This document shows positions 369 to 24,456 of a DNA stretch of 64,000 nt, piece by piece. The stretch spans positions 928,001-992,000 of the forward strand of contig OZ251992.1 of the NCBI GenBank assembly GCA_965246885.1, in the 5' to 3' direction. Under the pieces are notes generated by a model. It ran no database searches and had not been told where the DNA came from. It saw only the letters and a list, made by a program, of their open reading frames with translations. A program made the translations under genes and the position numbers. The number at the start of each line of letters is the position of its first letter. Within the stretch, counting starts at the first letter, position 1. This DNA comes from Abditibacterium sp. Lineage in GTDB: Bacteria; Armatimonadota; Abditibacteriia; Abditibacteriales; Abditibacteriaceae.

Positions 369-473
369 ATGCCGCTTCTCAAAGAACTGCTTCAATGGTT
401 GCCCGACGCGGAAGTGGTAGGCGACGACGGGCAGAACATCGCGGGCAGGATGGCCGTGCTCCGCAGTGGTTAA
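369..473 (+). pseudogene. Diverged duplicate of the murE 5' end (about 25 codons), then unrelated sequence
   Basis: Reads [34 protein letters not shown] versus MurE MPSLKELLSSLPDAEVVGDDGQNIAAVNY at 2923. Confidence 0.85.
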
Positions 474-2702
474 GGCAACAGTTCGGCATCGAGCACGATG
501 CGGAAGTTGCCTTCTTGTTGGATGCCGAAGAGGAACTCGACGTTCACGCTCGCGCCCGGCGCGAGGGTGCCGCCCGGAAGCGGCGCCGTCCAACTGGAGT
601 TCAATCCGCCGCCGTTACCGGACGAGGTGGAAGTGAGCGGCGCTTCGGTGGGGGTAGTGGGGGCGTCAATGGTCATACCGTAGGCGGCGCGTTGAATGGT
701 GTGGGCGCTGTCGTAGTAGCGCACCCCACCCGACGAAATCGCGCGCAGGTCAGCCACTCCGCTCGCGCTGCTGGTGCCCGCCGTCGTCCCAACGATGCGG
801 AAGCGCAGGGCGCTTACGGCGCCGCCGGTGTGGTTGGTGATGGTGCGGCGGATGGTGAGGCGCCCCTTGGAGTCCACGCCACTGCCCTTGGAAGCATAGC
901 GCGCGATGGAATACACGCCGGGGATGTTCATCGGCGCGTTGGAGATCACGTCGTTGCGCTGGATGGTGGACGCCGTGTTGTGCGGGTTGGGGCTGCCCAA
1001 GCGCGCGGCGGTCAAAGGGCCGACGCCCGTCTTGTCAACTGTGCTGTTGAGAACGGTGGTGTCCACGAGGTTCCAGTCGGTGGCGAAGGTGCCGGTGTTG
1101 GACGGAGCGCCCGTCTCCAAACGGCGGATGTAGGCGAATTGGTCGTTATCGCTCGTGGGGCCGATGGTGCGCGTGGGAACGTTGTCTACGACCGCTCCGG
1201 CAGCATTCTGTAGGGACAACGCGGTGCCGTTGGGGATGTCATCGGTATAGGATATGTCTGGGGTGGCAATGGCGCTTAAGGAGTAGCCGCCGGAATTGGC
1301 GAGAAGCAGGTGCCCGTAAGCTGGAATAATGCCCACGATAGGAACAGTAATACTCCCGGCAACGAGACTCCACCCTTCAACGTTGAGCGCCGCGCCCGTC
1401 GTGTTCGCCAACTCAATGAACTCATCTTGCGGGCCGTTTGGCCCTTCCAAGCGCAACTGGCTAATCAGCGCGCCGCTTGTGGCGGGTGGCCCAATGTAAA
1501 GTTCGGCGCTCGAAAGAGCGTGGTTGTTACTGTCGGCTCCTCCTGTCACCAGCACCTTGCCAGAGGGCAGAAGTGTAGCCGTGTGGCGGTTGCGCGCCGC
1601 TGTCATATTTCCTCCGTCCGCGAAGTTGCCCGTGCTGGGATCATATACCCCCGCACTCGAGTAGTTGACGCTTGTAGAGCGGTCGCCGCCTCCAATTACG
1701 ACCACCTTGCCATCGCTCAAGAGCGTGGATGTATGCTCGTAACGCGCCAGCATGACCCTCGCTGTAGCAAACGTGCCCGTGCTGGGATCGTATAGTTCGG
1801 CGGTGGATAGAGAGTTTGAATCCGTATATCCCCCTGTTAAAAGCACTTTGCCATTACCTAAAAGCGTGGCTTTATGATTGATGCGAGCGTTGATCATGCT
1901 GCCCGTTGCAGTGAAGGTGCCTATGCTGGGATCGTATAACTCTGCGCTTGACAGGGGGTTAGAGCCGTCAACGGCGTGGCCACCGCCACCGCCTGTTACA
2001 AGCACCTTGCCGGAGGGCAGAAGTGTGGCCGTGTGAAAGTAGCGCGTTGCCGTCATGCTACCGGTTGCGGTGAAAGTCCCCGTGCTGGGATCATATAGCT
2101 CGGCACTCGATAGAGTCGTAGAATTACCAGCTCCGCCCGTCATTAACACTTTACCATTGGCTAAGAGCGTGGCCGTGTAATAGATCCGCGCCGCTATCAT
2201 GCTTCCAGTCGCAGAGAAGCCCGTCGCGGGGGCGTAGAGTTCGGCACTCGAAAGAGAGCCGCCGGAATCATTTTGTCCTCCGGCGATTAGCACCTTACCG
2301 TTGGTTAAGAGCGTGGCCGTATGGAAGCTACGAGCCACCGCCATATTGCCTGCCGTGCCAATGAAGCCGCCCATGCTCGAATTGTATATCTCGACACTCG
2401 AAAGAGGGTGGTAGTTGCTGTCAACTCCTCCGGCTATAAACACGGCGCCGTTGTTCAAGAGAGTGGCGGTATGGCCGAAACGCGCAGTCGTCATGTTTCC
2501 CGCTGAGGTAAAGGTCTGTGGCTGGGCGTGGGCAGGCAATGCGCCGATTAGCAGCAAAAACAACAGGCATAGCCAATAAGCCGCCTTAGCTGCGGGTCGC
2601 GGGTCGCGGGTCGCGGGTCGCGGGTCGCGGGTCGCGGGTCGCGGGTCGCGGGTCGCGGGTCGCGGGTCGCGGGTCGCGGGTCGCGGGTGAAAGTGTTTGC
2701 AT
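470..2702 (-). CDS. Secreted Kelch-repeat beta-propeller protein with a lamin-tail-like domain; likely ATG (2702) is out of frame because of a 7-bp tract
   Basis: About 7 repeats of R..HTATLL.(N/S)GKVL..GG...[12 protein letters not shown]-like [22 protein letters not shown]; signal peptide ...[12 protein letters not shown]. The ORF track uses an in-frame TTG at 2755. Confidence 0.85.
2592..2688. repeat. Perfect heptanucleotide tract (GGGTCGC)x13 plus partial units
   Basis: 13 complete units counted at 2594-2684. Confidence 0.97.
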
Positions 2703-2922
2703 AACAGGTGAGGGGACGCCCCGCCGATTTTATCTCGTATTGTTAGGGCGCCCAAATAGTCGCGCTAAGGCTACACCATCCTCTTGCCATCTGCAAGCGG
2801 TGAGAGGAATAATGCCCGGCGCCCTCTCCGCGTCGCGTGGCGGAGTGGCAAACTGGACGGCGATTTCCGGCTGCGCCCGTACGGGTGGCGGGTGGGGGCC
2901 GCAAGGGTGTTAAACCCAAGCT

Positions 2923-9395: not shown

Positions 9396-10925
9396 ATGAA
9401 GCCACAAGACACCACCGTCGCCGTCCGGCCTCGTTTCGAGCGCCACAAAACTGCCCGCCCGCTCCGCCACTTGGACGAAACGGGCCTTTCCGCGCCGTCC
9501 CGCATGGGCCGAGGGACGCGCCCCGAACTGGAATTAGTGCCCGCTGTCGGCTCACAGGCGTCCGCCGTCGGCTCGCGGGCGTCCGCCACTGCGCCACAGA
9601 CATCTGCCGTCGCGCGAGAGACGTCCGCCGTCGCGCGAGAGACGTCCGCCGTCGCGCGAGAGACGTCCGCCGTCGCGCGAGAGACGTCCGCCGTCGCGCG
9701 AGAGACGTCCGCCGTCGCGCGAGAGACGTCCGCCGTCGCGTCGCCGCTATCCCCCGCCGAAGCGCGGAAGTTCAAAAAGCTGGTCGCGCCGTCCGTGCCC
9801 ATCGCGCCGTGCCATTGGGGGTTGCTCGTGGCGGCGCTCTTGCTCGCGGCGGCGTCGGTGCCGCTCGTGTACTCGGCTTCGACGGCCATCGCGCTCGACC
9901 AGCACGGTGGCGACTCGAATGTGTTTCTGTGGAAGCAACTGCAAAACGTCTTTGCGGGCATCGTGCTGATGGTGCTGGTGTCGCGCGTGCGCACCGCGAG
10001 TGTGCGCGGCTTCGCGTGGGGCCTGTACTTCGCAGCGATTGTAGGGCTGGTGCTGACGAAGTTCTCGCCGCTCGGCTTTTCGATGGGCAACGTCGAGCGC
10101 TGGGTGAAAATCGGGCCGCTCACCTTCCAATTCTCCGAACTGGCAAAAATTGCGCTCATTGGCGTGATGGCGGACTACTGGCACTTGTCGGCCAAACGCG
10201 CGCAACGCTCGCTTGAGCCTTGGCTGGGCGCGGCGGTAATCGCCGCGATCCCGGTCGCGCTCACCTTCATTCAACCGCACTTGTCGGCGGCTTTGGTGCT
10301 GGCCGCCATTCCGTTCGTCGTCGCGTATTGTGCGGGCGTGCCGGGTGCGCATTTTCAGAAGATTTTGCTGCCCATTCTCGTCTTGGGCGCCGTTGGGATG
10401 GCGCTGTGCAAGACGCACTCCGTCCCGTTCTTGGCTCCCTACCAACAAGACCGCATCGCCGCCAAACTGTCCGGCGGCGGAGACGAGCAGGGCGGCAACT
10501 ACCAACAACTTCAAGGCGAGCGCGCCATCGAGCGCGGCGGCATGGGCGGCGTCGGTTTGGGCGGGTCGTTGTATAAGAACGGGCATTTGCCCGCGCCTCA
10601 CACGGATTTCATCTTCGCCGTCATCGCCGAAGAAACCGGCTTGTGGGGCAGCGTGTTGCTCATCGGCTTGTATGGCTCCATCGTGTTCTTCTGCTTCCAG
10701 ATTGGGCACTCGTCGCGCGACGGCTTCCAGAAGCTGCTGTGTTCGGGCGTGGGCGCGCTGTGGGCGATTCAGGCTCTGGGCAACATCTTCATCGTGAGCG
10801 GCTGGGGGCCAGTGACCGGCTTGCCCTTGCCCGGCTTAACCTACGGCGGCTCCGGTTTGTGGTGCGCCCTGTTGGGTGTGGGTTTAGTGCTGGGCGTGTC
10901 GCGCGCGCATTGTGAAGAGAAGTAA
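9396..10925 (+). CDS. ftsW: SEDS peptidoglycan polymerase FtsW with a repeat-containing N-terminal extension
   Basis: RWVKIG, FQFSELAK, LPAPHTDFIFAVIAEE, PVTGLPLP..TYGGS; follows murD. Confidence 0.88.
   Translation: MKPQDTTVAVRPRFERHKTARPLRHLDETGLSAPSRMGRGTRPELELVPAVGSQASAVGSRASATAPQTSAVARETSAVARETSAVARETSAVARETSAVARETSAVARETSAVASPLSPAEARKFKKLVAPSVPIAPCHWGLLVAALLLAAASVPLVYSASTAIALDQHGGDSNVFLWKQLQNVFAGIVLMVLVSRVRTASVRGFAWGLYFAAIVGLVLTKFSPLGFSMGNVERWVKIGPLTFQFSELAKIALIGVMADYWHLSAKRAQRSLEPWLGAAVIAAIPVALTFIQPHLSAALVLAAIPFVVAYCAGVPGAHFQKILLPILVLGAVGMALCKTHSVPFLAPYQQDRIAAKLSGGGDEQGGNYQQLQGERAIERGGMGGVGLGGSLYKNGHLPAPHTDFIFAVIAEETGLWGSVLLIGLYGSIVFFCFQIGHSSRDGFQKLLCSGVGALWAIQALGNIFIVSGWGPVTGLPLPGLTYGGSGLWCALLGVGLVLGVSRAHCEEK
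9541..9742 (+). repeat. In-frame 21-bp tandem repeat encoding (TSAVARE)x6 plus degenerate units
   Basis: CCGCCGTCGCGCGAGAGACGT: five perfect copies at 9625-9729, one near-perfect at 9604, degenerate units from 9541. Confidence 0.95.
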
Positions 10926-13582: not shown

Positions 13583-15766
13583 TTACGGCAATACGGTGCC
13601 GGGAAGAGCGGCGCGCGGGGCGTCGCGGTGGGCAGGATCGGCGGCGCCCAACGTGCGCGGGCGCGGGATGCGCCACATGCCGTAGCATTGGCCGTTGAGC
13701 CAAGCGTCGCCGGTTTTGGGGTGGACGCGAATCCACGAGGTTTCGTGGGGGCCATCGCCAGTTGTGAGGTTTTCCCATGTCGCGCCGCCGTCGCGCGAGC
13801 GCACGAGTGTAGCGGCGCTCGCGTAGATGTTGCGCGGCCCGCCCGCGTAAACGATGCGAGGTTGGCCCGGATCAACAGCAACCGTCACGACGCGCGGCGG
13901 GCGCCCGTATTGGTCGAGGGGCAGTTTGGCGTCGGAGAAGGTGGTGCCATCCCACATTTTAACGCGCTCCTCGGATGCGAAGAAGTAATAGCCGGTGCGC
14001 GCGTCGCACGCCACGTCGCCAAAGCCGCCGGGAACCTCGACCACGCGTTGCCACGTCGCGCCGTCGTCGCGCGAGCGCACAAGAGCCGTCCCCTTTTTGC
14101 CCAACAAAGCGCCATCGGGCATCGAGATATAGACGCCCTGACAGTCGCTCATCGCTTGCCACGTCGCGCCTTGGTCGGTCGAGCGCAGGTTGGATGCGAA
14201 CAGGATGGCGGGGTTTTTCGGGTCGGTGTAGGAGATCTCATCGCCGCCCCACAGAAGCGGGGCGCCCTTGGCATCGTTGACAAAGTTCCACGTCGTGCCG
14301 CCGTCGCGCGACACGCGCATTTTGCGCGGCGGGTTCCAACTGGAGCCGGAGTCGCCATACCACATCGTCTGCCCCGACGCGCCCGCGCCGTAACACTGCC
14401 CGCCCCAGCCTAAACCCGATAGGTCGCGGTATGTCCACGTCCGCCCGCCGTCGAGGGTGAAGGCGCCGTTGTAGTCTTGAAAGCCAAGTAGCACCTCGTT
14501 CGGGTTTTGCAGGTTGAAGTTAAAGCTGACGCCGATCATGATGCCATTGTATCCGGCGTTGCTCCAGCGAAAGCGTTTTCCGCCGTCGGTGGATTTGGTG
14601 GCGAAGTCGCCGCCAATAGACCATGCCACGTTCGGGTCGGTGGGGTGCCATGTGACGTAGCCTTGACGGGCGTTGACGGGGAACGCGTTGGCGACGGTGT
14701 CGGTCGGAGCGAGATTGAAGTTCATGTTGCCAAGGGGCAATAGGCTTACTTCCATCAGGATGGGCTTCCACGTCGCGCCGCCGTCGTGCGACCAATAGCG
14801 CACCCATTTCCAGTTGTCGCCTGCGACCCAACACATCATGCGTTTTGGGTCAGCAGGGGAGACTTTGACGTTACGTACCGCTTTGCCGAGGTTATTCAGC
14901 CCGACGCAAGGCAGCACGACGAAAGTGTGGCTGTCCGTCGAGCGCAACACTTTGTCATCGCCCGATATAACAAGCGCCCCATCGGAGGCGATGTCGAAAC
15001 CATAGACACCCTTGTTGTAGATGTGCTCGAAGGTGCGCCCCTTGTCGGTGGAGCGGAACAAGCCTTCTTGCCCGGAAATCAGCACCGCGCCGTTACGCTC
15101 GACGCGCACCAAGGCAAAGGTGCCGCCACCTTGCGTCCAATCGGAATCAAGGTGGCGCACTATCTGGGGCGCCACGTTTTGCCACGTTTTGCCGCCGTCG
15201 TCCGAGCGGAACAGCCCTTGGCCTTCCGACAGATAATAAGCGCGCAGGCACATCCCCGCTTTGGCGTCAAACGAGGACGGGTCGAACGCCGTAAAGCCGC
15301 CCCAACCGTTGCGCGCGGACAACACTTGAGTCCACGAACCAGCTTTATCGGTCGAAAGATAAACGCCGTTAGGCGACTGACCCCAGTTTTTGTCCCACTC
15401 CATCGAGTTGGACGCTACGCCCAAGACATGCGCGGCGTTGCGCGGATCAATGGCGAAGTTGTTCGCGCCGCGCGCGTTCCAGCCGTTCATGGCGAGGTTC
15501 CATGTCGCGCCGCCGTCGCGCGAAGCGTAAAGCCCGCCCACGTCAATGGGCAAAAGCAGGAAGTTAGGGTCGGCGGGCGATACCGCGATGTCCCATCGGG
15601 GCCACTGCGCGCCCTCACCGCCTAATTTTTCGCCCGCGCGCGCCGCTTCGGGCGACAGCATCGGCATTTTGATGGCGGGCGCGTTTGCGCGGGGAGGCGG
15701 TGCGGCCAAACTGCAAGAAGAAAGCGCGAGGAGCGCGCCCGCGTAGAGGAATCTAACGGAGTTCAT
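13583..15766 (-). CDS. Secreted or lipoprotein BNR/Asp-box repeat beta-propeller (GH74/sialidase/VPS10-like)
   Basis: More than 10 Asp-box motifs of the SxDGGxTW type; signal MNSVRFLYAGALLALSSC. Confidence 0.8.
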   Translation of the reverse strand: MNSVRFLYAGALLALSSCSLAAPPPRANAPAIKMPMLSPEAARAGEKLGGEGAQWPRWDIAVSPADPNFLLLPIDVGGLYASRDGGATWNLAMNGWNARGANNFAIDPRNAAHVLGVASNSMEWDKNWGQSPNGVYLSTDKAGSWTQVLSARNGWGGFTAFDPSSFDAKAGMCLRAYYLSEGQGLFRSDDGGKTWQNVAPQIVRHLDSDWTQGGGTFALVRVERNGAVLISGQEGLFRSTDKGRTFEHIYNKGVYGFDIASDGALVISGDDKVLRSTDSHTFVVLPCVGLNNLGKAVRNVKVSPADPKRMMCWVAGDNWKWVRYWSHDGGATWKPILMEVSLLPLGNMNFNLAPTDTVANAFPVNARQGYVTWHPTDPNVAWSIGGDFATKSTDGGKRFRWSNAGYNGIMIGVSFNFNLQNPNEVLLGFQDYNGAFTLDGGRTWTYRDLSGLGWGGQCYGAGASGQTMWYGDSGSSWNPPRKMRVSRDGGTTWNFVNDAKGAPLLWGGDEISYTDPKNPAILFASNLRSTDQGATWQAMSDCQGVYISMPDGALLGKKGTALVRSRDDGATWQRVVEVPGGFGDVACDARTGYYFFASEERVKMWDGTTFSDAKLPLDQYGRPPRVVTVAVDPGQPRIVYAGGPRNIYASAATLVRSRDGGATWENLTTGDGPHETSWIRVHPKTGDAWLNGQCYGMWRIPRPRTLGAADPAHRDAPRAALPGTVLP

Positions 15767-15851
15767 GGAGAGTTGATGGGTGTTCACAAAGGGAAAGGGG
15801 GCGCCACTGCGCCGCGAACGCACTGTCCATTGCGGCGCGGCTGCCACGTCA

Positions 15852-16592
15852 TTACGCCGCCGGGAAAAGCTGCGCTTTGGGAAGAATAATCGAGGTGCCG
15901 CCGGGTCGTGTCCATAGCAATTGGGCTGAGGCAGAACCGGTGAGTTCTTTGTACTCCATCTTGACGATGTATTTAGTGTTAGCGGCGAGAGTAACGGGCG
16001 CCGAGAAGGTGCCCAGAGTCGTCCACTTGTCAATTACCAACACGTTGTTGATCCATAGGCGCACGCCATCATCGGTAGAGGTGGTGAACGAGTAAGTGCC
16101 GCCTTCTTGGGCCAGCACTTGCCCTGTCCATCGGATGGAGAAGTTGTCCACTCCGATGCTGGTGCCGGGGCTACCGGTGCCCCAGTTGAAGTTCACCTGT
16201 GGGTCGGTTTGGGTTTTGACAAGTGACGCCAACGCGTTGTCGCGGTAGTATTGGCCTTTCAAGCCGGTGCCAGTGCCGGTGATGGCAGGTGCCATGCTTT
16301 TGGAAGCGACGTTGGTGTATTTGCTCGTCCACGTCGCGTTGGACGCTTTGACGCGATAGTAGTAGGTCGTGCCCGCCGCCGCGTAGTTGTCCACGAAGGA
16401 GGTAACGTTGGCGCCAGTTTGTCCGCAGTATGTCCAAGGGCCAGCCGCCGCAGTTGCGCGTTCGACGGTGAACTGCGTCTCGTTGGTACTGTTGTCTTTC
16501 CACGTCAGCTTGACTTGAGCGTGGGCGGCAGTCGAGAAGGCGAGACCGCAAGCCGCGAGGAGGCCAGCAGAGAAGATGCGAAGATGTTTCAT
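15852..16592 (-). CDS. Secreted protein: N-terminally truncated FN3 domain plus PA14 domain
   Basis: Signal ...TAAHA; QVKLTWKDNSTNE...TTYYYRVKASN (FN3); GLKGQYY...DNFSIRWTG...DDGVRLW (PA14). Confidence 0.88.
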   Translation of the reverse strand: MKHLRIFSAGLLAACGLAFSTAAHAQVKLTWKDNSTNETQFTVERATAAAGPWTYCGQTGANVTSFVDNYAAAGTTYYYRVKASNATWTSKYTNVASKSMAPAITGTGTGLKGQYYRDNALASLVKTQTDPQVNFNWGTGSPGTSIGVDNFSIRWTGQVLAQEGGTYSFTTSTDDGVRLWINNVLVIDKWTTLGTFSAPVTLAANTKYIVKMEYKELTGSASAQLLWTRPGGTSIILPKAQLFPAA

Positions 16593-16626
16593 GTGGTGTT
16601 TGGAAAATGGATGTTAATGGAATTTC

Positions 16627-18468
16627 TCACTGGGCGGCCAAGTTGGAGGGGTCTCCGGGGCCAATGCGAATGTCGTCGAGGTAAGCCCGGAATTGCCCGG
16701 TGGTGTTGGCTCGGTCGTAGGCGACCCAAACGCGATCAATGTTCTTGCCCGCCAACGATGATAAATTGGCTGTAATCTGACTCCACCCTCCCAGCACGAT
16801 CCCCCCGCCGTGTCCTGCGTTGGGGTGCAAACTCTTCCCGTTTTGATCGGTGAGGCCACTGTCACGTAGCGTGGTGCCGTCGGTACAGTGAAAGTCGAGC
16901 GCCACGTAGCGCCCACCATCTTGCACCGGGTTGATCCAGTAGGACAGCGTTGTGTTGGAGGCGATGGTGACTGGGGCGCCGCTCAGGTTGAAGACCTTGA
17001 AATAGCAGAAGTTGGCTCCAGAAGCGTTCCCCGCTGTCCCCGCCGCCATAAGCATGGACGAGCCACTGTTGGCGTTGATTGTGCCCCAGTCCCCGTTACT
17101 GCGTACTCCGCACTCTGGCCCCACGCCAGCCACGAAGCCAGACACGTTCGTGGCGCCCGCCGTATAATCGGTGTCGGGCGAGTCGTTCCACGTGGGCAAC
17201 GGATCGCCGCCGTTCTCGAAGCTTGTTGTAAACGTGCCAGCCGCAACCGGTGCCGGAGTGGGAGTTGGTGCGGGCGCCGTGCCCGACCAACCATTTAGGT
17301 CTTTGATCCACTGCGTGAGTTGGTTGGCCATCGCAATATGGTCGTTGCCGTTGGGGTGGCCGCCATGCGGCTGCTGGGGAAACGTGCGGGTAACGACCTT
17401 GGGATCGCCCAGATTTCTCACCGCACTAAATACCCCATTCAGGAAGTTGGGATCGGTCATCGTGGTGTTCATGCAGATGATCCACGCGTTAGGATAAACG
17501 CGACGCAGGTCTTGAACCTGTGCGAGGTAACGCTGCGTGAGGGTGCCATACCAATCGGTGGCGGGGTCGTATTGATACTGGTCGTTTTGCCCGGTGGCGA
17601 TCACCACGACATCTGCTTGCCACGAGGCAAAGCCTTGGTATTGGGAATAACCCGCACCCGCCGAGGCCTTGTCCCACATGGAGCGCATATTATCGAAGAA
17701 GAACCCCGTGCTCATCCCGGCCCCGCCTTTGGCGATGAGTCGCGTGTCGGCGCCGAAGTTGCGACCCGTCAAAGCCGCATAGTCATAGTAGTTGCTGCCG
17801 CCCCATGTGTCGCCGTTGTCGGTGGAATTGGCCAGTTTGATCGTGCAGCATTGCTCCGTCACAGAGTCACCGTAGAACTCGATTTTGCGAGCCGAGTTCA
17901 CCGACGGCGCTTGCAACAGTGTGGCACCGTCATCCAGAATGATGCCTTCCATGAGCAGTAATGCGAAGGCATCGCCGTCGCGCCGCACGGTCAGATTGTG
18001 TTCGCCAAGCGATAGGTTATTGGTGATGAGGGTGTTGCCGCCCCAGTCGGCGCCCACGCTTTCGCGGCGCAGTTGTTGGCCGTCCAGAAAATACAGCAGG
18101 TCGGTATTTTGTGAGTTGGGTGGAACAGTGGCATCGCGTCCCCGGAAGGTGATGCGGATGCTGGAAGAGTTGGTGAAACGAATGCGCGCTTCGCCGCCCG
18201 TCCAGCCCATATCTACGCTCTGGCCGTCCACGCTGTATTGGTTGGGATGCTGTTGGGTGCGGCCCGTGTAGGTGATGTTGCTATTGGCGCCGCTAAAAGT
18301 GACCGCGTGTGCAGTGACGGCATGGCCCACCATGAGACCGAAAAGCGCAAGCGTTGGCCAGAGTGCAAAGGTGCCCCGCTTTTGGAAGGGAGAACGCCTG
18401 TGTTCGATCCGAGCAATTCTACGTCGGGTCGCTTCTTGAAGGAAGCGTTGGATGAATGAGATTTTCAC
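16627..18468 (-). CDS. Secreted SGNH/GDSL esterase (CE2-like) with a C-terminal beta-sandwich domain and DPSNLAAQ tail
   Basis: FYGDSVTE, GQND, GGHP motifs; PT linker; C-terminal domain resembles accessory domains of GH92 proteins. Start uncertain (GTG 18468 chosen). Confidence 0.78.
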   Translation of the reverse strand: MKISFIQRFLQEATRRRIARIEHRRSPFQKRGTFALWPTLALFGLMVGHAVTAHAVTFSGANSNITYTGRTQQHPNQYSVDGQSVDMGWTGGEARIRFTNSSSIRITFRGRDATVPPNSQNTDLLYFLDGQQLRRESVGADWGGNTLITNNLSLGEHNLTVRRDGDAFALLLMEGIILDDGATLLQAPSVNSARKIEFYGDSVTEQCCTIKLANSTDNGDTWGGSNYYDYAALTGRNFGADTRLIAKGGAGMSTGFFFDNMRSMWDKASAGAGYSQYQGFASWQADVVVIATGQNDQYQYDPATDWYGTLTQRYLAQVQDLRRVYPNAWIICMNTTMTDPNFLNGVFSAVRNLGDPKVVTRTFPQQPHGGHPNGNDHIAMANQLTQWIKDLNGWSGTAPAPTPTPAPVAAGTFTTSFENGGDPLPTWNDSPDTDYTAGATNVSGFVAGVGPECGVRSNGDWGTINANSGSSMLMAAGTAGNASGANFCYFKVFNLSGAPVTIASNTTLSYWINPVQDGGRYVALDFHCTDGTTLRDSGLTDQNGKSLHPNAGHGGGIVLGGWSQITANLSSLAGKNIDRVWVAYDRANTTGQFRAYLDDIRIGPGDPSNLAAQ

Positions 18469-18527
18469 GATGGATAGTTCGGGGCGCCCGCTTTCTTTTA
18501 AATGGCGGGCGCCGACTCGAACGGTTT

Positions 18528-19763
18528 TTACTGGGCGGCGAGGTTGGAGGGGTCTGGTGCGAGTGCTTGGAGGAACCAGCGTTGTTGGTCGAGGGCGTAG
18601 TCGTTGTACAGGGTCAAGGGGGTGTTGTCGCCGCCGTTGTAGTCGCCCTTGGTGAGGATGCGCCCGGAGTATTTGTTGCGGATGCGATACGAGCCGTCGC
18701 TTTGGGCATCGAGATACCACCTTTGCCAGTCGAGGTCATAGTTGGTGAACAGGCTGGCGGCGGTGCCATCGGCTCCGGCGTTGTCGGCTTGGGTGAGCAC
18801 CTTGTTGCTGTAGGCGTTGCGCACGCGATACGAGCCGTCGCCCACCGCCTCGAAGCGCCAACTCTGCCACGCCACGCCGTAGTCGTTAAACACGTTCGCG
18901 GGCGTGTTGTCGCCGCCCGCGTTGTCCCCTTGCGTTAGAAAACGGGCGCCTCCACCATACTTCAACTGAACTTTATACGTCGCGCTCGTATCAACGCCGC
19001 CAGCGACGGGCGGCGGCGGGTTGGCGCGTAGCGCGGCGTCGCTCATGGTGGTGAAGTTGAACGAGCGCCAATCGGAAGTCACGTATTTCATACGCGCTTC
19101 GCCGCCGTCGGGATAGGCCGCGTAGGTTTCGGTCACGTAGTCGAAACCAGCGTTGGCGAGATATTTTCCGTTCGGGTCGTTGATTAAGCGCGCTTGGATA
19201 GTCGAGTAGACGCCGACGATGGGGCGGTTTTGCAAGTTGTAACGCGCGTCCGTAAAACCGTGAAAGTTGTAACCCGTCCCCGTATTGGCCTGACTACCCG
19301 CTTTAACTGCATTGCCCACGCGGTCGCCGGGAAGGGTGCTTCGGACGTTGAGATTAAAATCTTCGGGGTAGGCCGCGCCGCCAAATTCGTTTTGGTCAAC
19401 TAACTTTTGCCATACGCCATCGCCGTAGACAACCCACAACTGAAATCCTCCCAATTCGACGCGGGCCGAGGCAGATGGATTGCCGCTCGCCGGTTCGTAG
19501 ACCTGAAAGTAAGGTCGAATGTAAGCTGAGCCTTTGGGGTCGGTGTTGCCGCGCCCGGTTGCGTGGTTGTACCACGCGTAGAAATCGGGGACTCCGTGCG
19601 GAATGTCCTCGGAGTTCAGATTCATATCGTCCAAGATTTCTTGGACGCTGTTGGCATGGACGGGCGCCCAAGACGCCAAAAGCACTAACGCAGCGATGAA
19701 AATCGCCGCACACGCGCGCCGGAGCGCCGCTGTATTGAAGCGGTTGGTGTGGATGTGGGTCAT
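18528..19763 (-). CDS. Secreted protein: unknown N-terminal domain, ricin-B (QxW) lectin trefoil and DPSNLAAQ tail
   Basis: GGAGG 2 nt before ATG 19763; signal ...WAPVHA; three repeats WQSWRF / WQRWYL / QQRWFL. Confidence 0.82.
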   Translation of the reverse strand: MTHIHTNRFNTAALRRACAAIFIAALVLLASWAPVHANSVQEILDDMNLNSEDIPHGVPDFYAWYNHATGRGNTDPKGSAYIRPYFQVYEPASGNPSASARVELGGFQLWVVYGDGVWQKLVDQNEFGGAAYPEDFNLNVRSTLPGDRVGNAVKAGSQANTGTGYNFHGFTDARYNLQNRPIVGVYSTIQARLINDPNGKYLANAGFDYVTETYAAYPDGGEARMKYVTSDWRSFNFTTMSDAALRANPPPPVAGGVDTSATYKVQLKYGGGARFLTQGDNAGGDNTPANVFNDYGVAWQSWRFEAVGDGSYRVRNAYSNKVLTQADNAGADGTAASLFTNYDLDWQRWYLDAQSDGSYRIRNKYSGRILTKGDYNGGDNTPLTLYNDYALDQQRWFLQALAPDPSNLAAQ

Positions 19764-19951
19764 AACCTCCGTGAGAAACACGAGCTTTAGGCGTCAGTAA
19801 GAAAAGCGCCCCAAGCGGGGGGGAGGCGACTGGGTGAAGTGACAGACACAGGTCGCCCAACCCGTTGCCTGCCAAGGAGCGGGAACGGGGTGGGCAACGG
19901 ATGTTGGATCAGTGGGGGGGCGGATGCAGTCGCCGTCAGCCCCCAAACATC

Positions 19952-20698
19952 TTAGATGCGCGCGATGATTTCACCGTCTTGCAAGAACGGTTCGGCGAGG
20001 TGGAACGGGGTGCCGTTGGATTTGAGAACCGGTGCTGGCGCGTATTGCGGCAAATAAACGCGGCGCGGCGTGGCCGTTGTGTTGGGGCCGGAGCGGTGGA
20101 ACACGTCGGACATAAACACGGCGATGCTTCCTGCCGGACAAATCACCGGGTCGCCCGGATCGTCGCCGCGATAGCCGACCAAATCCCAGTCGCCCTCGTC
20201 ACGCGAATGGTGCACAATGTCGCGCCCGCCCGCGCGGTCGTAGGGCAACATGTAAACGGTGCCGTTCTCAACCGTGATGTCGTCTAAGGCGCACCAGCAG
20301 GTCAGATAAAGCGGGTTGTCGGGCGCCGCATCGTTTTGGACGTAGCCGGAATCTTGGTGCCACGCGAACTTGCCGCCCTTCTCGGCGGCCTTGATGACGT
20401 ATTGCTCGAACACGAAAAACACCGTATCGCCGAGCAACGCGCGCGTGACTTCGGCCATCGTGGGCGAAAAGACGAACTGCGCCAGTTCGGGGTATTTCTC
20501 GAACGCCGAGATGAAGTACTTGGTCGTGCGGGCGCGGCCCTGCGCGTCCGCTTCGGCGTCCACGTCGGCAACAGCGCGGTCAGCGACATCGCGCAAAAGG
20601 TGCAAGAGGTCGTCGGGGATGACGCGCTCCAACACGGTGAAACCTTGCGTTTGGAAATCGCGCAAGTGGGAATCAGAAACAACGGAAGTGATGGTCAT
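19952..20698 (-). CDS. PhyH family dioxygenase
   Basis: QGFTVLERVI, WHQDSGY, WCALDD..VENG, GSIAVF..DVFHRSGPN. Confidence 0.9.
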   Translation of the reverse strand: MTITSVVSDSHLRDFQTQGFTVLERVIPDDLLHLLRDVADRAVADVDAEADAQGRARTTKYFISAFEKYPELAQFVFSPTMAEVTRALLGDTVFFVFEQYVIKAAEKGGKFAWHQDSGYVQNDAAPDNPLYLTCWCALDDITVENGTVYMLPYDRAGGRDIVHHSRDEGDWDLVGYRGDDPGDPVICPAGSIAVFMSDVFHRSGPNTTATPRRVYLPQYAPAPVLKSNGTPFHLAEPFLQDGEIIARI

Positions 20699-20759
20699 AG
20701 TGAACCTGTGGAGTGGGTGGTCTGGGCAACGCAGAAGGTGCGGCCACGCTCAGAACGGG

Positions 20760-20908
20760 CTATCCGGACGGTTCACCCGACTATCCGAGTCGTCCGCTCG
20801 ACCGGGTGAACCGTCCGCCCTGCCGGGAGAGTCGTCCACCCGGCTATCCGAACCATCCGCCCGACTGAGAGAATCGTCCGGACGGCTATCCGAATCATCC
20901 GGACGGGC
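20760..20908. repeat. Degenerate 21-bp-period tandem array (about 7 units)
   Basis: Units such as ATCCGAGTCGTCCGCTCGACC, ATCCGAACCATCCGCCCGACT and GAGAGAATCGTCCGGACGGCT. Confidence 0.8.
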
Positions 20909-21006
20909 CATTCGTTTGGAGGCCAAGGCGAGACAATCGCCCACCCCGCCGACTGACTCGGCGGAGTGGGCGAAGCGTTCAATGGCCGCGTGCCTTCTCG
21001 TCTCCA

Positions 21007-21045
21007 CTGCTTCTAATATACCCTAAATCAAACACAGCCAAACAG
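21007..21045 (-). promoter_or_regulatory. Conserved 39-bp promoter/operator, copy 2 (upstream of the PhyH-to-GH29 operon)
   Basis: Minus strand CTGTTTG-gctg-TGTTTGA-ttta-GGGTATATTAGAAGCAG, matching 24462-24500. Confidence 0.75.
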
Positions 21046-21088
21046 AGGCGCAGGAGGCACGTTTTTTCCCCGCTTGGATGTAGCGTGG

Positions 21089-21125
21089 AACAATCCTCCT
21101 CCCCAAGGTGGGGAGGAGGATTGTT
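21089..21125. terminator. Perfect 17-bp hairpin after the DUF1559/lipoprotein unit
   Basis: AACAATCCTCCTCCCCA-agg-TGGGGAGGAGGATTGTT. Confidence 0.7.
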
Positions 21126-21149
21126 GGTTGGAAGCGTGAAGCGAACCGT

Positions 21150-21383
21150 TCACTCAGGGCGCGGCAAATGAACGCGCGGGGCGCTGGGGTCTGGAGCGAC
21201 GTTTTGCTTGGCAAACGCCGCCGCCGCTTGCTGGCGGTAAGATTCCTTTTGCTTTGCAACCGCCTGCTTCGCCGACGCACTGACTGTCGTGACGGGTGTC
21301 ACGGTCGGTGCGGAGGAACACCCCGCACCGACCATCAACAAGCTAAGAGCAAGGGGCAATTGCCACAGAAGAGAGAGTTTCAT
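21150..21383 (-). CDS. Small lipoprotein
   Basis: Lipobox-like LLMVGAG-C; directly downstream of a DUF1559 gene. Confidence 0.7.
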   Translation of the reverse strand: MKLSLLWQLPLALSLLMVGAGCSSAPTVTPVTTVSASAKQAVAKQKESYRQQAAAAFAKQNVAPDPSAPRVHLPRPE

Positions 21384-21412
21384 AAAGCTACCGCAAGGAA
21401 CTATCGCTGAAT

Positions 21413-22372
21413 TTAGTTCCAGCCTTCTTTTTCGAGTTTGGCCAAGCCATCCACTACACCTTGGACGGGAGTGTTGCAGTTGACGGCATCTGTGCCACGG
21501 TTATCAAAATTGAAAGTCGATGAGTGGCAAGCAGCCTCATCGTCGGGACCGTTGTAAACCGGACCATTTGGGTCGAAGGCGCCCCACATATTGAAAGGCG
21601 TCATCGTTTGCAATGGGCGCATAGCCTTCACATGCCCATCGGCAAACAAGAAGTTGCCCGTTTGCATATGCCCTTTGAAAGCGCCGTTGCTCGACAGGCC
21701 AGCGAACTTTTTGGGGTCTTGGCTCCAATCCATCCAACCTGCGGCGCCACCATAAGCGAAGGGGCCATCATTGGGATCTTCGCCACCACCCTGTTCGCAA
21801 AGCATGATTTTCTGCGCAGGCGACCTAATGCCGGACAACTTTTGTCCGCGCTTCGTATAACCATTGGGCGTATACGTTTGTGGAAGCATCAACACGCGGA
21901 AGTTGGCCGCATAAGAACTGGGAAGGTTGGTAGGTGAGCCGATGCTCGCAGCATCCGCCTGATCCGCGCCATTGATTTGGCCCAACGCCAGAGTGTTGTT
22001 GGGATTGGACGGACAAGCGAAAATTTGCGCGCTCTTCACATAGGGATAAATGCGATTCGCCCATGTGACATTGTGAGTCGGCCCGCCACCTGATGGCTGG
22101 TTCGCCCACTCATATTGCGGCGGACCGTAGGGATACTTCTCGTCGTAGTCCTGCGCGTATTGCAGGATACCCAAGCCGAGTTGCTTGAGGTTGGACTGGC
22201 ACGAGGCGCGGCGCGCGTTTTCCCGGGCACGCGCGAAAGCCGGGAACAAGATGGCCGCGAGAATGGCGATGATGGCGATAACAACGAGCAACTCTATGAG
22301 TGTGAAAGCTTTGTTGACCTCTTCCGATTTGGAGGCGCCGATGCGCGTGTTGCGCTGAGTATAAATGTTCAT
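21413..22372 (-). CDS. DUF1559 prepilin-type N-terminal cleavage/methylation protein with H-X9-DG motif
   Basis: [56 protein letters not shown]. Confidence 0.95.
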
Positions 22373-22458
22373 GGTTTGTAGGTGTGCGGCAGGGCCGCGA
22401 AGGTTTGGGGATAGGAGAACAGCCGCCCCGTCGAGCGGGGACGGGGCAGGACGGGAAT

Positions 22459-23232
22459 TTAGCTACCGTCCGCTTTTGTCTGCCAAGCGCCGAGACGATC
22501 TATTAAATCGGTCGGCGCGGTAACGTTATCCTCGATCGTCCACATATTGACGGGCGTTCCCGTCGCAATGGGCTTGAGCGACTTGACGTGGCCATCGGCA
22601 AACAGGAAGTTCGAGTTACCCAAGTGGCCTTGGAAGGCCTCCGCCGCAAATTTGCTTGCGGGCGTAAAGCCCAAAGGCATATCCGCATAGTTGCCGGAAT
22701 ACTCCGCGACGAGGATGGTGCGAGTCGTATTGGGCAATTCGGACAAGGCGCGCCCAAGCGACTTATAGGTCGGCGGTGTTGTGGTCTCATCAAGGGGGAA
22801 GGGTGAACGTCCGCCAGTGATGGGGTCGACAGGGTCGCCAGCGAACACGTCTTGTCCGTTGCAGCCGTAAGAAACGTTTGTGCCGTCCGCCGCGCCGCCG
22901 CCGCCGTCCGGGTTGGACGGGCACGAGAAGAGCTGCGTGCTCTTGAGGTAGGGCTGTAACAGTACGCGCCATGTGTGATCAGTGACCCCGACGTCGTAGC
23001 CCACATAGCGGCCCGGATAACGCTCGTCGTAGTCTTGGGTATACTGGGCAAAGCCCAAGCCGATTTGCTTGAGATTGGACTGGCAGGAGGCTTTGCGCGC
23101 GTTTTCGCGGGCGCGGGCGAAAGCCGGGAACAAGATGGCCGCAAGAATGGCGATGATAGCGATAACTACGAGGAGTTCTATAAGGGTGAAAGCGGCCCGC
23201 TTGGAGCCTTGGGCGTGAATTAGCGTTCTCAT
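22459..23232 (-). CDS. DUF1559 prepilin-type protein with H-X9-DG motif
   Basis: [14 protein letters not shown]...; [15 protein letters not shown]. Confidence 0.95.
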
Positions 23233-23307: not shown

Positions 23308-24456
23308 TTAACCGGAAATAAGGATGCCCGGAGCGAGCATCGCGGGTTGGCTGACGTGGCCCGAAGAGGCCCAATCAGTGCGGCAGGTCAGGCGTGGGAT
23401 GAGCTTCATCGCCACGCACCGGTGGGTGGCACCGGAGGTCAAGTTGTGATGGCGCTGCCAGAGCATTTCGGCGGCGGCCCGTCCGATTTCCTCCCAAGGC
23501 AAGCGCGCGCTGGTCAGTAGCAGGTCGCTACGCGAGTCGTCATCGAACCCCGCGAGGGCGGGCCACTTGTCACGTGGCACCCCGGCGCGGCGCAACTCCT
23601 TCAACAGTTCGAGAGCGATGGGGTCGTTGGCGACGACCACCGCTGACACCGATTCGTAGCCTCCCTCCTCGACAAAGATGCGCGCTACTTCGCGGGCGGC
23701 GATGGCGTGCTCTTCGGCGTCGAACTCCGAAACCGTGCTACCCGGATGAAACGAGAGCGGCTCCAAACCGCGTTCGCACAGCAACGCTCGCCAGCCTTCC
23801 TCGCGCGCTTGCGACCAATGCAGGTTCTGGTTGCTCGCCGTGTGCAAGGCCACAAAAGCGATGTCGCGGTGCCCCTCTTCGAGCAGATGCTGCGTGACTT
23901 GGCGCCCTCCAGCGTGGTCATCGAAAGAGATGCTGTCGCGTCCGAACGGGTCGTGCGCACCAGCACCATCTCCAAACCATACGCGGGCCGTGCCAAATAA
24001 CTCGCAGTCCAGCCACGCTCCCCACTCGAACACTCCGGCAACGGCGGGCACCCCATCCTGCTGGAATTGCCACGCTTGTTCGGCTGACCATGTGAGTGCC
24101 GCGCCACCCGCAAGCGCAACGGCGTCTTCAAAACCTCTCCTCACGTGGCGATCCCGATCCGAAGGGCTACCGGTGGGATAAATAAACACATACTCTTCGC
24201 GGGGCTGCCCGTTCGAGCGCAACACCGACGACTCACCAGCAAACATTCCCACTTTGGGCACCGCGCGAAACAAGCCTTCGTCGGCCAACGTTCGCAACGC
24301 TTGGTGCGCTATGTGGTTCGTGACCCCATGCGTTTGCGCGATTTCTCGCACGGACGGCATCACGACCCCCGGCGTCGCACGGGCATCACGAAGCAAGGAG
24401 CGCAGTGCTTCTTCCACTACGCGCCGTTGCTTCTGAGTTTCCTTGCGGGTTGCCAT
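23308..24456 (-). CDS. GntR-HTH / LacI-type sugar-binding transcriptional regulator
   Basis: MPSVREIA...AHQALRTLADEG..GMF wHTH; HLLEEGHRDIAF, ANDPIA, GFDD, LTS periplasmic-binding-like domain. Confidence 0.88.
   Translation of the reverse strand: MATRKETQKQRRVVEEALRSLLRDARATPGVVMPSVREIAQTHGVTNHIAHQALRTLADEGLFRAVPKVGMFAGESSVLRSNGQPREEYVFIYPTGSPSDRDRHVRRGFEDAVALAGGAALTWSAEQAWQFQQDGVPAVAGVFEWGAWLDCELFGTARVWFGDGAGAHDPFGRDSISFDDHAGGRQVTQHLLEEGHRDIAFVALHTASNQNLHWSQAREEGWRALLCERGLEPLSFHPGSTVSEFDAEEHAIAAREVARIFVEEGGYESVSAVVVANDPIALELLKELRRAGVPRDKWPALAGFDDDSRSDLLLTSARLPWEEIGRAAAEMLWQRHHNLTSGATHRCVAMKLIPRLTCRTDWASSGHVSQPAMLAPGILISG

Follow-up and report, generated by a model that had tools for sequence, protein, structure and literature searches.

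Two unrelated secreted proteins of Abditibacterium sp. end in the same eight residues, DPSNLAAQ, and these residues match the first strand (strand A) of an FN3 domain. The neighbouring gene encodes a third exported protein, here called the adaptor, whose FN3 domain lacks precisely that strand and is followed by a PA14 domain. We consider it probable that the two tailed proteins dock on the adaptor by donor-strand complementation, giving 1:1 heterodimers in which the PA14 domain would serve as a shared plug-on lectin. The genes lie in a window of 64,000 nucleotides, i.e., the whole stretch of DNA that was analysed, and their coordinates are given in Table 1. Upstream, the surrounding locus also includes two DUF1559 prepilin-type genes and one gene of the PhyH family, and downstream a gene for a secreted protein with BNR repeats. 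A scan of the locus for promoters and terminators gave signals at the level of shuffled sequence; no RNA holder is listed for the locus, which has no bearing on its expression.

Table 1. Features of the split-FN3 locus, in coordinates of the window.
Feature	Position	Strand	Basis or remark
Co-oriented locus of sugar-utilisation type	13583..23232	-	Pfam, ORFs
Adaptor, 246 aa: signal peptide 1-25, FN3 strands B-G, linker, PA14	15852..16592	-	Pfam, model, sequence
PA14 domain (putative lectin) with Asp174-Asp175	15855..16274	-	Pfam PF07691, structure alignment
FN3 socket, residues 26-100, without strand A	16293..16517	-	six-strand model, structure alignment, column frequencies
CE2-like SGNH esterase, 613 aa, secreted	16627..18468	-	start GTG
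Tail 2, DPSNLAAQ + TGA, FN3 strand A	16627..16653	-	esterase; P-G before it keeps the canonical Pro at -3
Lectin protein, 411 aa, secreted	18528..19763	-	ORF translation
Tail 1, DPSNLAAQ + TAA, FN3 strand A positions -1 to +6	18528..18554	-	lectin protein
31-nt direct repeat	copy 1 16624-16654, copy 2 18525-18555	.	87% identity, spacing 1901, family D13
GntR/LacI-type regulator, just beyond the locus	23308-24456		

The adaptor, read from sequence, is cleaved between AHA and Q and has no lipobox. Its mature chain starts with QVKLTWKDNSTNE, continues into PA14, and carries neither an anchor nor a C-terminal tail. In the structural model (pLDDT 95), six FN3 strands (B, C, C', E, F and G) are followed by a coil linker, with no substitute for strand A. 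The FN3 topology set out in an extract of PMC12051499 is ABCC'EFG, with strand A in the same chain; the mature chain begins instead at strand B in 4/4 adaptors. The socket superimposes on solved FN3 chains with Z scores of 9.5-10.8 and an rmsd of about 2 over 71-81 aligned residues, and residue 1 of the model falls at residues 12-21 of single FN3 chains (17 in 3teu; 21 in 3mpc, 2h45 and 7jgu; 12 in 9y5y). The six-strand model and the structure alignment thus bear out what the sequence-only reading had claimed for this gene, namely an FN3 domain without exactly strand A. Among the best 50 structural matches, none was a solved strand-A-less FN3 domain with a donated strand. The model was built on a 122-row alignment in which the first strand of PA14 is misregistered against residues 60-67, so detail near the F-G hairpin and the linker is less safe than the pLDDT suggests; an earlier model (4 rows, pLDDT 56) was too poor for use. 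The linker was also considered as an in-cis replacement for strand A and was ruled out, as it is variable, coil, and without a PxxL motif.

Within the socket, the strand-B core (V27, L29 and W31, the last being the strand-B Trp) is kept and is hydrophobic across adaptors, and the strand-F tyrosines Y77 and Y79 are present. Two positions set the adaptors apart: K98 occurs in 4/4 adaptors vs 6 of 1,185 other FN3 domains, and W88 in 4/4 vs 28 of 1,167; neither is found in the other aligned strand-A-less proteins. The PA14 domain scores 101 bits with PF07691 (cut-off 24) and aligns with 6qe7 over 141 residues (Z 24.4, rmsd 1.6, 43% identity). An Asp-Asp pair is described as the Ca2+/sugar motif of PA14 in the portion of PMC8092209 consulted. 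It is present in three of the four adaptor family members and replaced by Gly-Gly in the orthologue P0007, and by analogy with the family we regard the adaptor PA14 as a putative Ca2+-dependent sugar-binding module.

Full-length orthologues of the adaptor, all three metagenomic, account for 3 of 36 matches, at 72, 64 and 62% identity. Their signal peptides have diverged, and all begin with QVxLxW directly after the A of the cleavage site; the strand-A-less form is conserved, in support of the sequence-only reading. A 5.6-kb contig of a relative in run X1 is about 81% identical over 15946-16368. No adaptor orthologue was found in scans of metagenome and genome contigs, in 60 relatives or in 26 family genomes, and a search of a representative library gave one adaptor among the best 150 of 74,654 matches, in which multi-repeat proteins dominate.

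The two tailed proteins have different architectures; signal peptides of both, as of the adaptor, were read from sequence. The lectin protein consists of a signal peptide (about 1-36), an N-terminal domain (about 37-255), a Pro linker, a ricin-type beta-trefoil (about 262-400; Pfam RicinB_lectin_2, 54 bits, cut-off 25.6) and the strand-A tail. Its N-terminal domain belongs to no known family, gave no sequence match in the PDB, and is all that most of the 32 homologues share with the protein. Atlas matches were all below 0.9 and hence leads only; one of them hints at an alginate lyase for this domain (0.86). The esterase consists of CE2_N, an SGNH domain, a Pro/Thr linker, a domain of about 190 residues and the tail. 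Both Pfam cut-offs are passed (CE2_N 30.6, cut-off 27.9; Lipase_GDSL_2 34.6, cut-off 32.9), and the catalytic Ser and His motifs (GDS and HP) are present, as expected of a CE2 SGNH esterase; the NCBIfam model AxeC2 gave 52.7, far under its cut-off of 500. The domain of about 190 residues is related to part of a GH92 mannosidase (7nsn residues 262-393, E 5.5e-11). The database places the start of this gene 45 codons downstream of the GTG used here for the 613 residues. Orthologues of either protein were not found, the 26 other genomes of the family giving partial matches only, and the tail is at the C-terminus of 0/18 homologues of the last esterase domain and 0/32 of the lectin protein.

That these unrelated proteins both end in DPSNLAAQ was confirmed in coordinates, strand and translation. 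The tail agrees with P-x-x-P-[ST]-[NG]-L-x-A, the profile of strand A. From the Leu of this motif, strand B follows at the canonical spacing of 9 residues in 232 of 270 motif sites (372 strand-B sites examined); tail and adaptor together therefore lack positions +7 to +11 only, i.e., the five-residue A-B turn. The claim that the tail is an FN3 strand A thus agrees with both profile and spacing, although at 7 residues from the Pro it is short, against about 12 in a canonical strand A. In this genome (G000), the only two such tails adjoin the only strand-A-less FN3 domain found there. A recombination event joining the GCCGCCCA of the tails with that of the adaptor signal peptide was set aside, because it would leave 5 residues where the canonical number is 9. 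A predicted complex of adaptor residues 26-101 (4-row alignment) with lectin-protein residues 256-411 scored 0.26 and 0.29 against a mark of 0.32, with controls that were not folded, and speaks neither for nor against docking.

The shared tail is more than a chance match: frames ending in PSNLAAQ number just these two among the 61,966 six-frame stop-to-stop frames of the genome. Neither 300 other genomes of the phylum nor a viral collection contain the exact tail. The looser pattern P[ST]NLxAQ-stop has 2 matches in G000 and 4 in those 300 genomes, vs 5 control matches, and 0/4 of the matches elsewhere in the phylum stand at a gene end. Among the 2,706 predicted genes of G000, 9 groups share their last 8 residues; three of the groups are one paralogous C-terminal domain family, four are pairs that look paralogous by eye, and one is presumably a GroEL-type tail.

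It is typical of sorting signals that unrelated exported proteins have the same C-terminus, and other exported proteins of G000 have shared C-terminal features. A separate enzyme or transporter could accordingly recognise the tail as a signal for secretion, processing or surface sorting, the adaptor being independent of it. LPXTG, PEP-CTERM and GlyGly-CTERM signals, however, consist of a motif, a membrane helix and then basic residues, whereas here just 8 residues lead up to the stop codon, with no hydrophobic segment, no basic tail and no match to an NCBIfam sorting model. It is moreover present on only 2 of the 2,706 predicted genes, and its match to strand A next to a socket would be a coincidence. 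We therefore regard this alternative, which the sequence-only reading had raised, as very improbable.

At the DNA level, the two tails differ in one Leu codon (CTC vs TTG) and in the stop (TAA vs TGA). This synonymous difference had been taken as consistent with selection on the peptide; the difference is real, but 7/8 codons are the same (P about 0.010 given the codon usage of the genome) and lie inside the 31-nt direct repeat, so the tails look copied and the three synonymous changes are weak evidence of selection. The repeat covers the tail codons and almost nothing besides, and similarity between the two regions ends at the stop codon. An assembly error was ruled out: short-read contigs carry both stops intact with 0 differences (run X1 record 6; run X2 records 12 and 14; both runs come from a single study, X1 possibly being the source sample). 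The repeats could be the scar of a cassette insertion, or an excision site, at the esterase gene, with the peptide incidental. They bracket exactly one gene, and a second locus in G000 has a deletion by which an adaptor paralogue is reduced to its 3' end. Yet both copies of the repeat lie in frame and stop where the reading frame stops, what they encode is the one strand missing from the next gene, and none of the 15 listed joints (17 in total) in the short-read contigs skips the esterase gene. Such a scar would account for the origin of the second tail, not for its identity with strand A, and we consider it improbable as an explanation.

Fused relatives bear on a further possibility, namely that an enzyme-FN3-PA14 gene was split long ago. 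In 3 of the 18 homologues of the last esterase domain, the chain runs straight into a complete FN3 domain at the position of the tail (P0040, P0041 and P0043); P0058 (CE2-ricin-PA14) and P0057 (enzyme-ricin-PA14) are likewise single chains, and four genomes of the same family encode FN3-PA14 proteins whose single chain includes strand A (L003, L007, L020 and L037). These proteins have the same domains in the same order as predicted for partner-FN3-PA14, in support of the sequence-only reading, and differ from the split system in being one chain, with FN3 intact or missing, rather than separate genes. Such a split could have left a mere vestige: the downstream part would have gained a signal peptide, the adaptor would have adapted to six strands, the stub would be functionless, and the second stub would have arisen by local duplication. 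Besides the fused forms, the near-identity of the tail codons, the existence of tail-less strand-A-less FN3 proteins and the restriction of K98 and W88 to the adaptor family speak for a vestige. Against it, the adaptors have diverged to 62%, yet the stubs on unrelated proteins still agree in 8/8 residues, their three changes being silent. A stub that had gone without selection since the split should have decayed, and the groove residues V27, L29 and W31 are still hydrophobic. We regard a vestige as unlikely, while giving it some weight.

Strand-A-less FN3 domains also occur elsewhere. Of 33 viral matches to PxAPTNLxVx-stop, 11 end strand-A-less FN3 bodies (7 distinct; HMM confirmation at 5 loci, the others judged by eye). 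Small proteins built from strands B-G and a strand A at the terminus are found in phage and metagenome contigs (L106, L108, L263, L270, L273, L274, L280, L282, L289 and P0032; strand-A-less bodies ending in strand A in L106, L108 and P0032). They share the split point and the terminal strand-A peptide with the system described here, but have longer tails (L-x-V-x), no K98, and socket and tail on one chain, and for this last reason could self-associate; a published account of them was not found in the literature searched. Other strand-A-less forms are tail-less (short contigs L092, L096 and L099; two in tandem in L107), so a six-stranded FN3 domain may be able to stand alone. Around the viral permuted-subunit loci, tails on neighbouring genes are not in excess (5 in 105 kb vs 10 in 181 kb), and the matches near and away from the loci are all apparently spurious frames. 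Viral scans with FN3 queries comprised one without a match, 12 loci that are ordinary strand-A-bearing or unclear, and 4 further loci. No strand-A-less FN3 domain was found in another phylum in the 30 loci read, with 151 genomes searched.

To return to docking, the FN3 domain would be split between genes at the A-B turn, and all three proteins, by their signal peptides, are exported. The cleaved adaptor, as modelled, would start at strand B with the strand-A groove exposed, and the last eight residues of either the esterase or the lectin protein would enter this groove and complete the fold. Because the common tail matches the missing strand, the partners probably clip onto the adaptor outside the cell rather than each having a sugar-binding domain of its own. 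Judged by FN3 topology, Lys98, which stands in place of a small residue of strand G, is probably in contact with the free carboxylate of the short tail, and the tail proline probably lies against Trp88; it is equally conceivable that both residues patch a groove that stays empty. The recurrence of a terminal strand A on strand-A-less bodies elsewhere favours docking. Counting against it are the copied look and the shortness of the tails, their absence from the homologues and other genomes searched, the tail-less strand-A-less forms, the Gly-Gly of P0007 and the lack of an excess of tails near the viral loci. As each adaptor offers a single socket and each partner a single tail, only two alternative 1:1 heterodimers would form, in the order partner-FN3-PA14, and PA14 would be a shared, detachable Ca2+-dependent module holding either partner on a glycan. 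Chain growth is impossible, since the adaptor is tail-less and a socket is missing from the partners; no protein of G000 with both groove and donor strand was found. The complex would thus be neither a filament nor a multi-enzyme scaffold, and the "modular extracellular complex" first proposed has to be narrowed to alternative heterodimers.

Donor-strand complementation is described for chaperone-usher and type V pili, TasA, archaeal threads and CPR Pam pili in the parts consulted of 10.1101/2022.04.26.489512 and PMC13278184, where an incomplete beta-sandwich is completed by the terminal strand of another chain. An incomplete sandwich and a matching strand on another gene product are present here at the level of sequence and model. 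Unlike in pili, the fold is FN3, the donated strand would be strand A and would come from the C-terminal end of unrelated cargo proteins, and only heterodimers would form. No chaperone, usher or maturation protease is among the 10 neighbouring genes scanned with Pfam. Classical cadherins swap A strands, the first strand of an Ig-like sandwich binding in trans (extract of PMC12051499). Cadherins exchange a strand that each domain owns, whereas here the acceptor is without the strand and the donor without the rest of the domain. In cellulosomes, a C-terminal dockerin, folded and Ca2+-binding, attaches enzymes to a multi-cohesin scaffoldin. The likeness is that a C-terminal tag would join different secreted carbohydrate-active proteins to a carrier of a carbohydrate-binding module; the differences are an eight-residue strand, a single socket and no cell anchor, and the three proteins have no dockerin or cohesin matches in Pfam.

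Isopeptide tags of the CnaB/SpyTag type bring a Lys, an Asn/Asp acceptor and a catalytic acid together in one buried pocket; K98 is invariant among the adaptors. It is highly doubtful, in our estimate, that the tail is a covalent tag, in which the docked strand forms an isopeptide bond between Lys98 and the terminal Gln or carboxylate as part of a widespread split-FN3 docking code. If true, the lectin would be permanently grafted to any tagged enzyme, a natural two-gene tag-and-catcher on FN3.

No published description of split-FN3 docking was found in the literature searched, outside which most subscription journals lie. Because the three proteins are small and soluble, a single peptide and a single domain would suffice to test docking, and the pair could become a compact protein-engineering tag. 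If docking is true, bacteria can build architectures of enzyme and binding module after secretion, with an eight-residue tag and a 75-residue socket, as a minimal alternative to gene fusion or cohesin-dockerin, and there would be a function for short PxxPxNL tails and for truncated FN3 domains annotated as fragments.

Three co-oriented genes lie on the minus strand, arranged as described earlier. Translation bore out the sequence-only reading that two different proteins of secreted type share the C-terminus DPSNLAAQ. Among 61,966 six-frame frames searched in the genome, PSNLAAQ is C-terminal in only these two. In the 2,706 predicted genes, 9 groups have their last eight residues in common, one of which we take to be a GroEL-type tail; with four paralogous pairs judged by eye, the DPSNLAAQ pair is the only group not ascribable to paralogy or to such a tail. 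The pattern P[ST]NLxAQ-stop matched twice in this genome, 5 times in the control, and 4 times across 300 further genomes from the phylum, where none of the matches was a gene end. Both stop codons are unchanged in short-read contigs from two runs of one study, one of which may be the source sample. The DUF1559 genes, which occur in clusters, hint at an origin in Armatimonadota. The feature, a shared tail and a socket (FN3 strands B to G in the adaptor), is real. A sorting signal on secreted-type proteins, which would here be confined to two frames, is a very improbable explanation of the tail.

Features of the locus, its genome and related contigs (C1, contig of this genome; L106 and L107, metagenome contigs)
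Feature	Location	Strand	Size	Description
Lectin protein	window 18528-19763	minus	411 aa	N-terminal domain without known family, ricin-type lectin, ends DPSNLAAQ
Its N-terminal domain	window 18996-19655	minus	~220 aa	family without Pfam or PDB match
CE2-like SGNH esterase	window 16627-18468	minus	613 aa	ends DPSNLAAQ
Adaptor	window 15852-16592	minus	246 aa	signal peptide ending AHA, then QVKLTWKDNSTNE, then PA14
Lectin-esterase gene gap	window 18477-18511			9-bp G+C stem GGCGCCCGC / GCGGGCGCC, 13-nt A-rich loop
Large, apparently secreted protein	window 470-2755	minus		~350-aa C-terminal domain
Other proteins with that domain, examples	C1:155004-158363, C1:922972-927129, C1:1893870-1896056
ARETSAV units	window 9396-9700			short in-frame tandem repeats, gene start
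Units similar to ARETSAV	window 20750-21007			intergenic
Secreted glycan-active proteins	C1:772992-774572, C1:2479493-2481661, C1:2520608-2522590			Ala/Ser/Thr/Lys-rich tail
Adaptor-paralogue remnant	C1:3048230-3048582	plus	59 residues	69% identical to PA14 end
Split FN3 gene and the PA14 gene after it	L106:232-1246
Tandem FN3 domains	L107:3-1256

As proposed, the tail is an FN3 strand A. At 270 of 372 distinct strand-B sites in 208 loci, the motif P[STAE][NGDES][LFVP] lies upstream, with the consensus P-A-A-P-S-N-L-T-A-T-A-V, which the tail fits; nine residues separate the Leu from strand B at 232 of these 270. Counted along this motif, the tail runs from position -1 to position +6, with the adaptor starting at +12; therefore, only the A-B turn is absent. 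The claim that the adjacent protein lacks strand A was likewise upheld: the modelled mature adaptor (pLDDT 95), built on a sequence alignment partly misregistered near residues 60-67, shows six FN3 strands, with the linker as coil. In single solved FN3 chains, the counterpart of its residue 1 lies 12-21 residues from the start. The second domain of the model matches the PA14 of 6qe7 (Z 24.4). The two other FN3 domains found in the genome each have their own strand A. We consider it reasonably probable that the tail docks as a donor strand into the adaptor FN3. The structural case for tail and socket is coherent; the function is predicted, with evidence from one locus.

According to this proposal, all three proteins would be exported and their signal peptides cleaved, the tail would insert into the socket, assisted by K98 and W88 of the adaptor, and PA14 would bind sugar. 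Full-length adaptor orthologues account for 3 of 36 matches (72, 64 and 62% identity), and all three start, after an Ala, at QVxLxW. A set of 1,185 domains of this FN3 subtype, all full-length, served for comparison; adaptors keep the strand-B core V27, L29 and W31. They have in common W88 (28/1,167 elsewhere, where Gly is usual) and K98 (6/1,185 elsewhere, where Ala or Val is usual), the columns beyond N94, K98 included, being partly extended without gaps. From FN3 topology, position 98 presumably lies beside the tail end and position 88 beside its start. These residues are consistent with capture of a short strand bearing a free carboxylate, and equally with a groove that stays empty and is patched over. 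Three of four adaptors have the Asp-Asp motif of PA14, reported in PMC8092209 to bind Ca2+ and sugar (Gly-Gly in the homologue P0007). Elsewhere in the genome, a LacI-type regulator precedes an adaptor-paralogue remnant that an apparent deletion has fused with the beginning of a prepilin-type gene; this looks like a second such locus that has decayed.

Three of 18 homologues of the last esterase domain (10 read full-length, all ends inspected) continue straight into a complete FN3 where the tail sits. The lectin protein has 32 homologues; the nearest two fuse an enzyme to ricin and PA14 domains, the enzyme being CE2 in one (CE2-ricin-PA14). Single-chain FN3-PA14 proteins with strand A occur in four genomes of the same family. 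Thus, a docked pair would restore a domain order found within single genes in relatives. The same fusions also fit a rather unlikely alternative, namely that the tails are functionless stubs left by gene fission. None of the 50 homologues is a full-length orthologue of either tailed protein or has the tail at its C-terminus, and the 26 other genomes of the family gave partial matches only. Members of the lectin protein's N-terminal domain family often stand alone and end in NPPP, while in one case PA14 domains are attached.

Seven of the eight tail codons are identical (P ~0.010 under genome codon usage), and a 31-nt repeat of 87% identity encloses these codons and barely more. Probably, one tail was copied from the other, or both from a common source. 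That the tails reflect nothing but such a DNA-level repeat is improbable. The synonymous differences had been read as a sign of selection on the peptide; all three are indeed silent, but are weak evidence because identity was what delimited the tract. The stem in the lectin-esterase gap, read from the sequence, could tune transcript levels.

Split FN3 proteins also occur elsewhere. L106, L108 and P0032, from metagenome contigs, have strands B-G plus their own terminal strand A, as do 11 of 33 viral PxAPTNLxVx-stop matches (7 distinct; 5 loci assigned by HMM, the rest by eye). In the FN3 fold, the end of strand G and the start of strand A are at opposite poles; therefore, short-linker proteins of this type would need trans donation. 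In L106 such a gene directly precedes one, cut by the contig end, encoding a signal peptide, PA14 and a strand-B start without strand A, the reverse of the adaptor order. Strand-A-less FN3 domains with no tail in view (L092, L096, L099, L107) count against trans donation, as does the lack of any excess of tails on genes neighbouring the viral loci. No second unrelated tailed enzyme beside a separate socket was found in this analysis. The nearly identical strand-A-less tandem in L107, followed by a repeat domain, is possibly a multi-socket protein or an assembly duplication.

Other shared features were noted. The secreted glycan-active tails close in AP...S (e.g., KVSAPSASTS), possibly a second C-terminal signal. 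Ten large, apparently secreted proteins, one of them in the window, have the ~350-aa domain in common (53-72% identity), and its last residues read V[VL]D[AT]E[VL]LP-stop; the window copy has no NCBIfam match above cut-off, and the domain perhaps serves lineage-specific export or anchoring. The gene bearing ARETSAV units is presumably FtsW-like.

The tail-socket pair would presumably share its purpose with cohesin-dockerin, but its proteins have no dockerin, cohesin or anchor. The proposed docking would work like donor-strand complementation, as described in 10.1101/2022.04.26.489512 and PMC13278184, except that no polymerising subunit is involved, and like cadherin A-strand swapping (PMC12051499), of which it is not a member. 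A search covering few subscription journals found no published account of a trans-acting tag made from FN3 strand A. The modular extracellular complex once suggested narrows to a predicted pairing of either partner with the adaptor; the parts permit two alternative 1:1 complexes, no polymer and no scaffold. The likely benefit is a single lectin serving both glycan-active partners within a sugar-utilisation locus.
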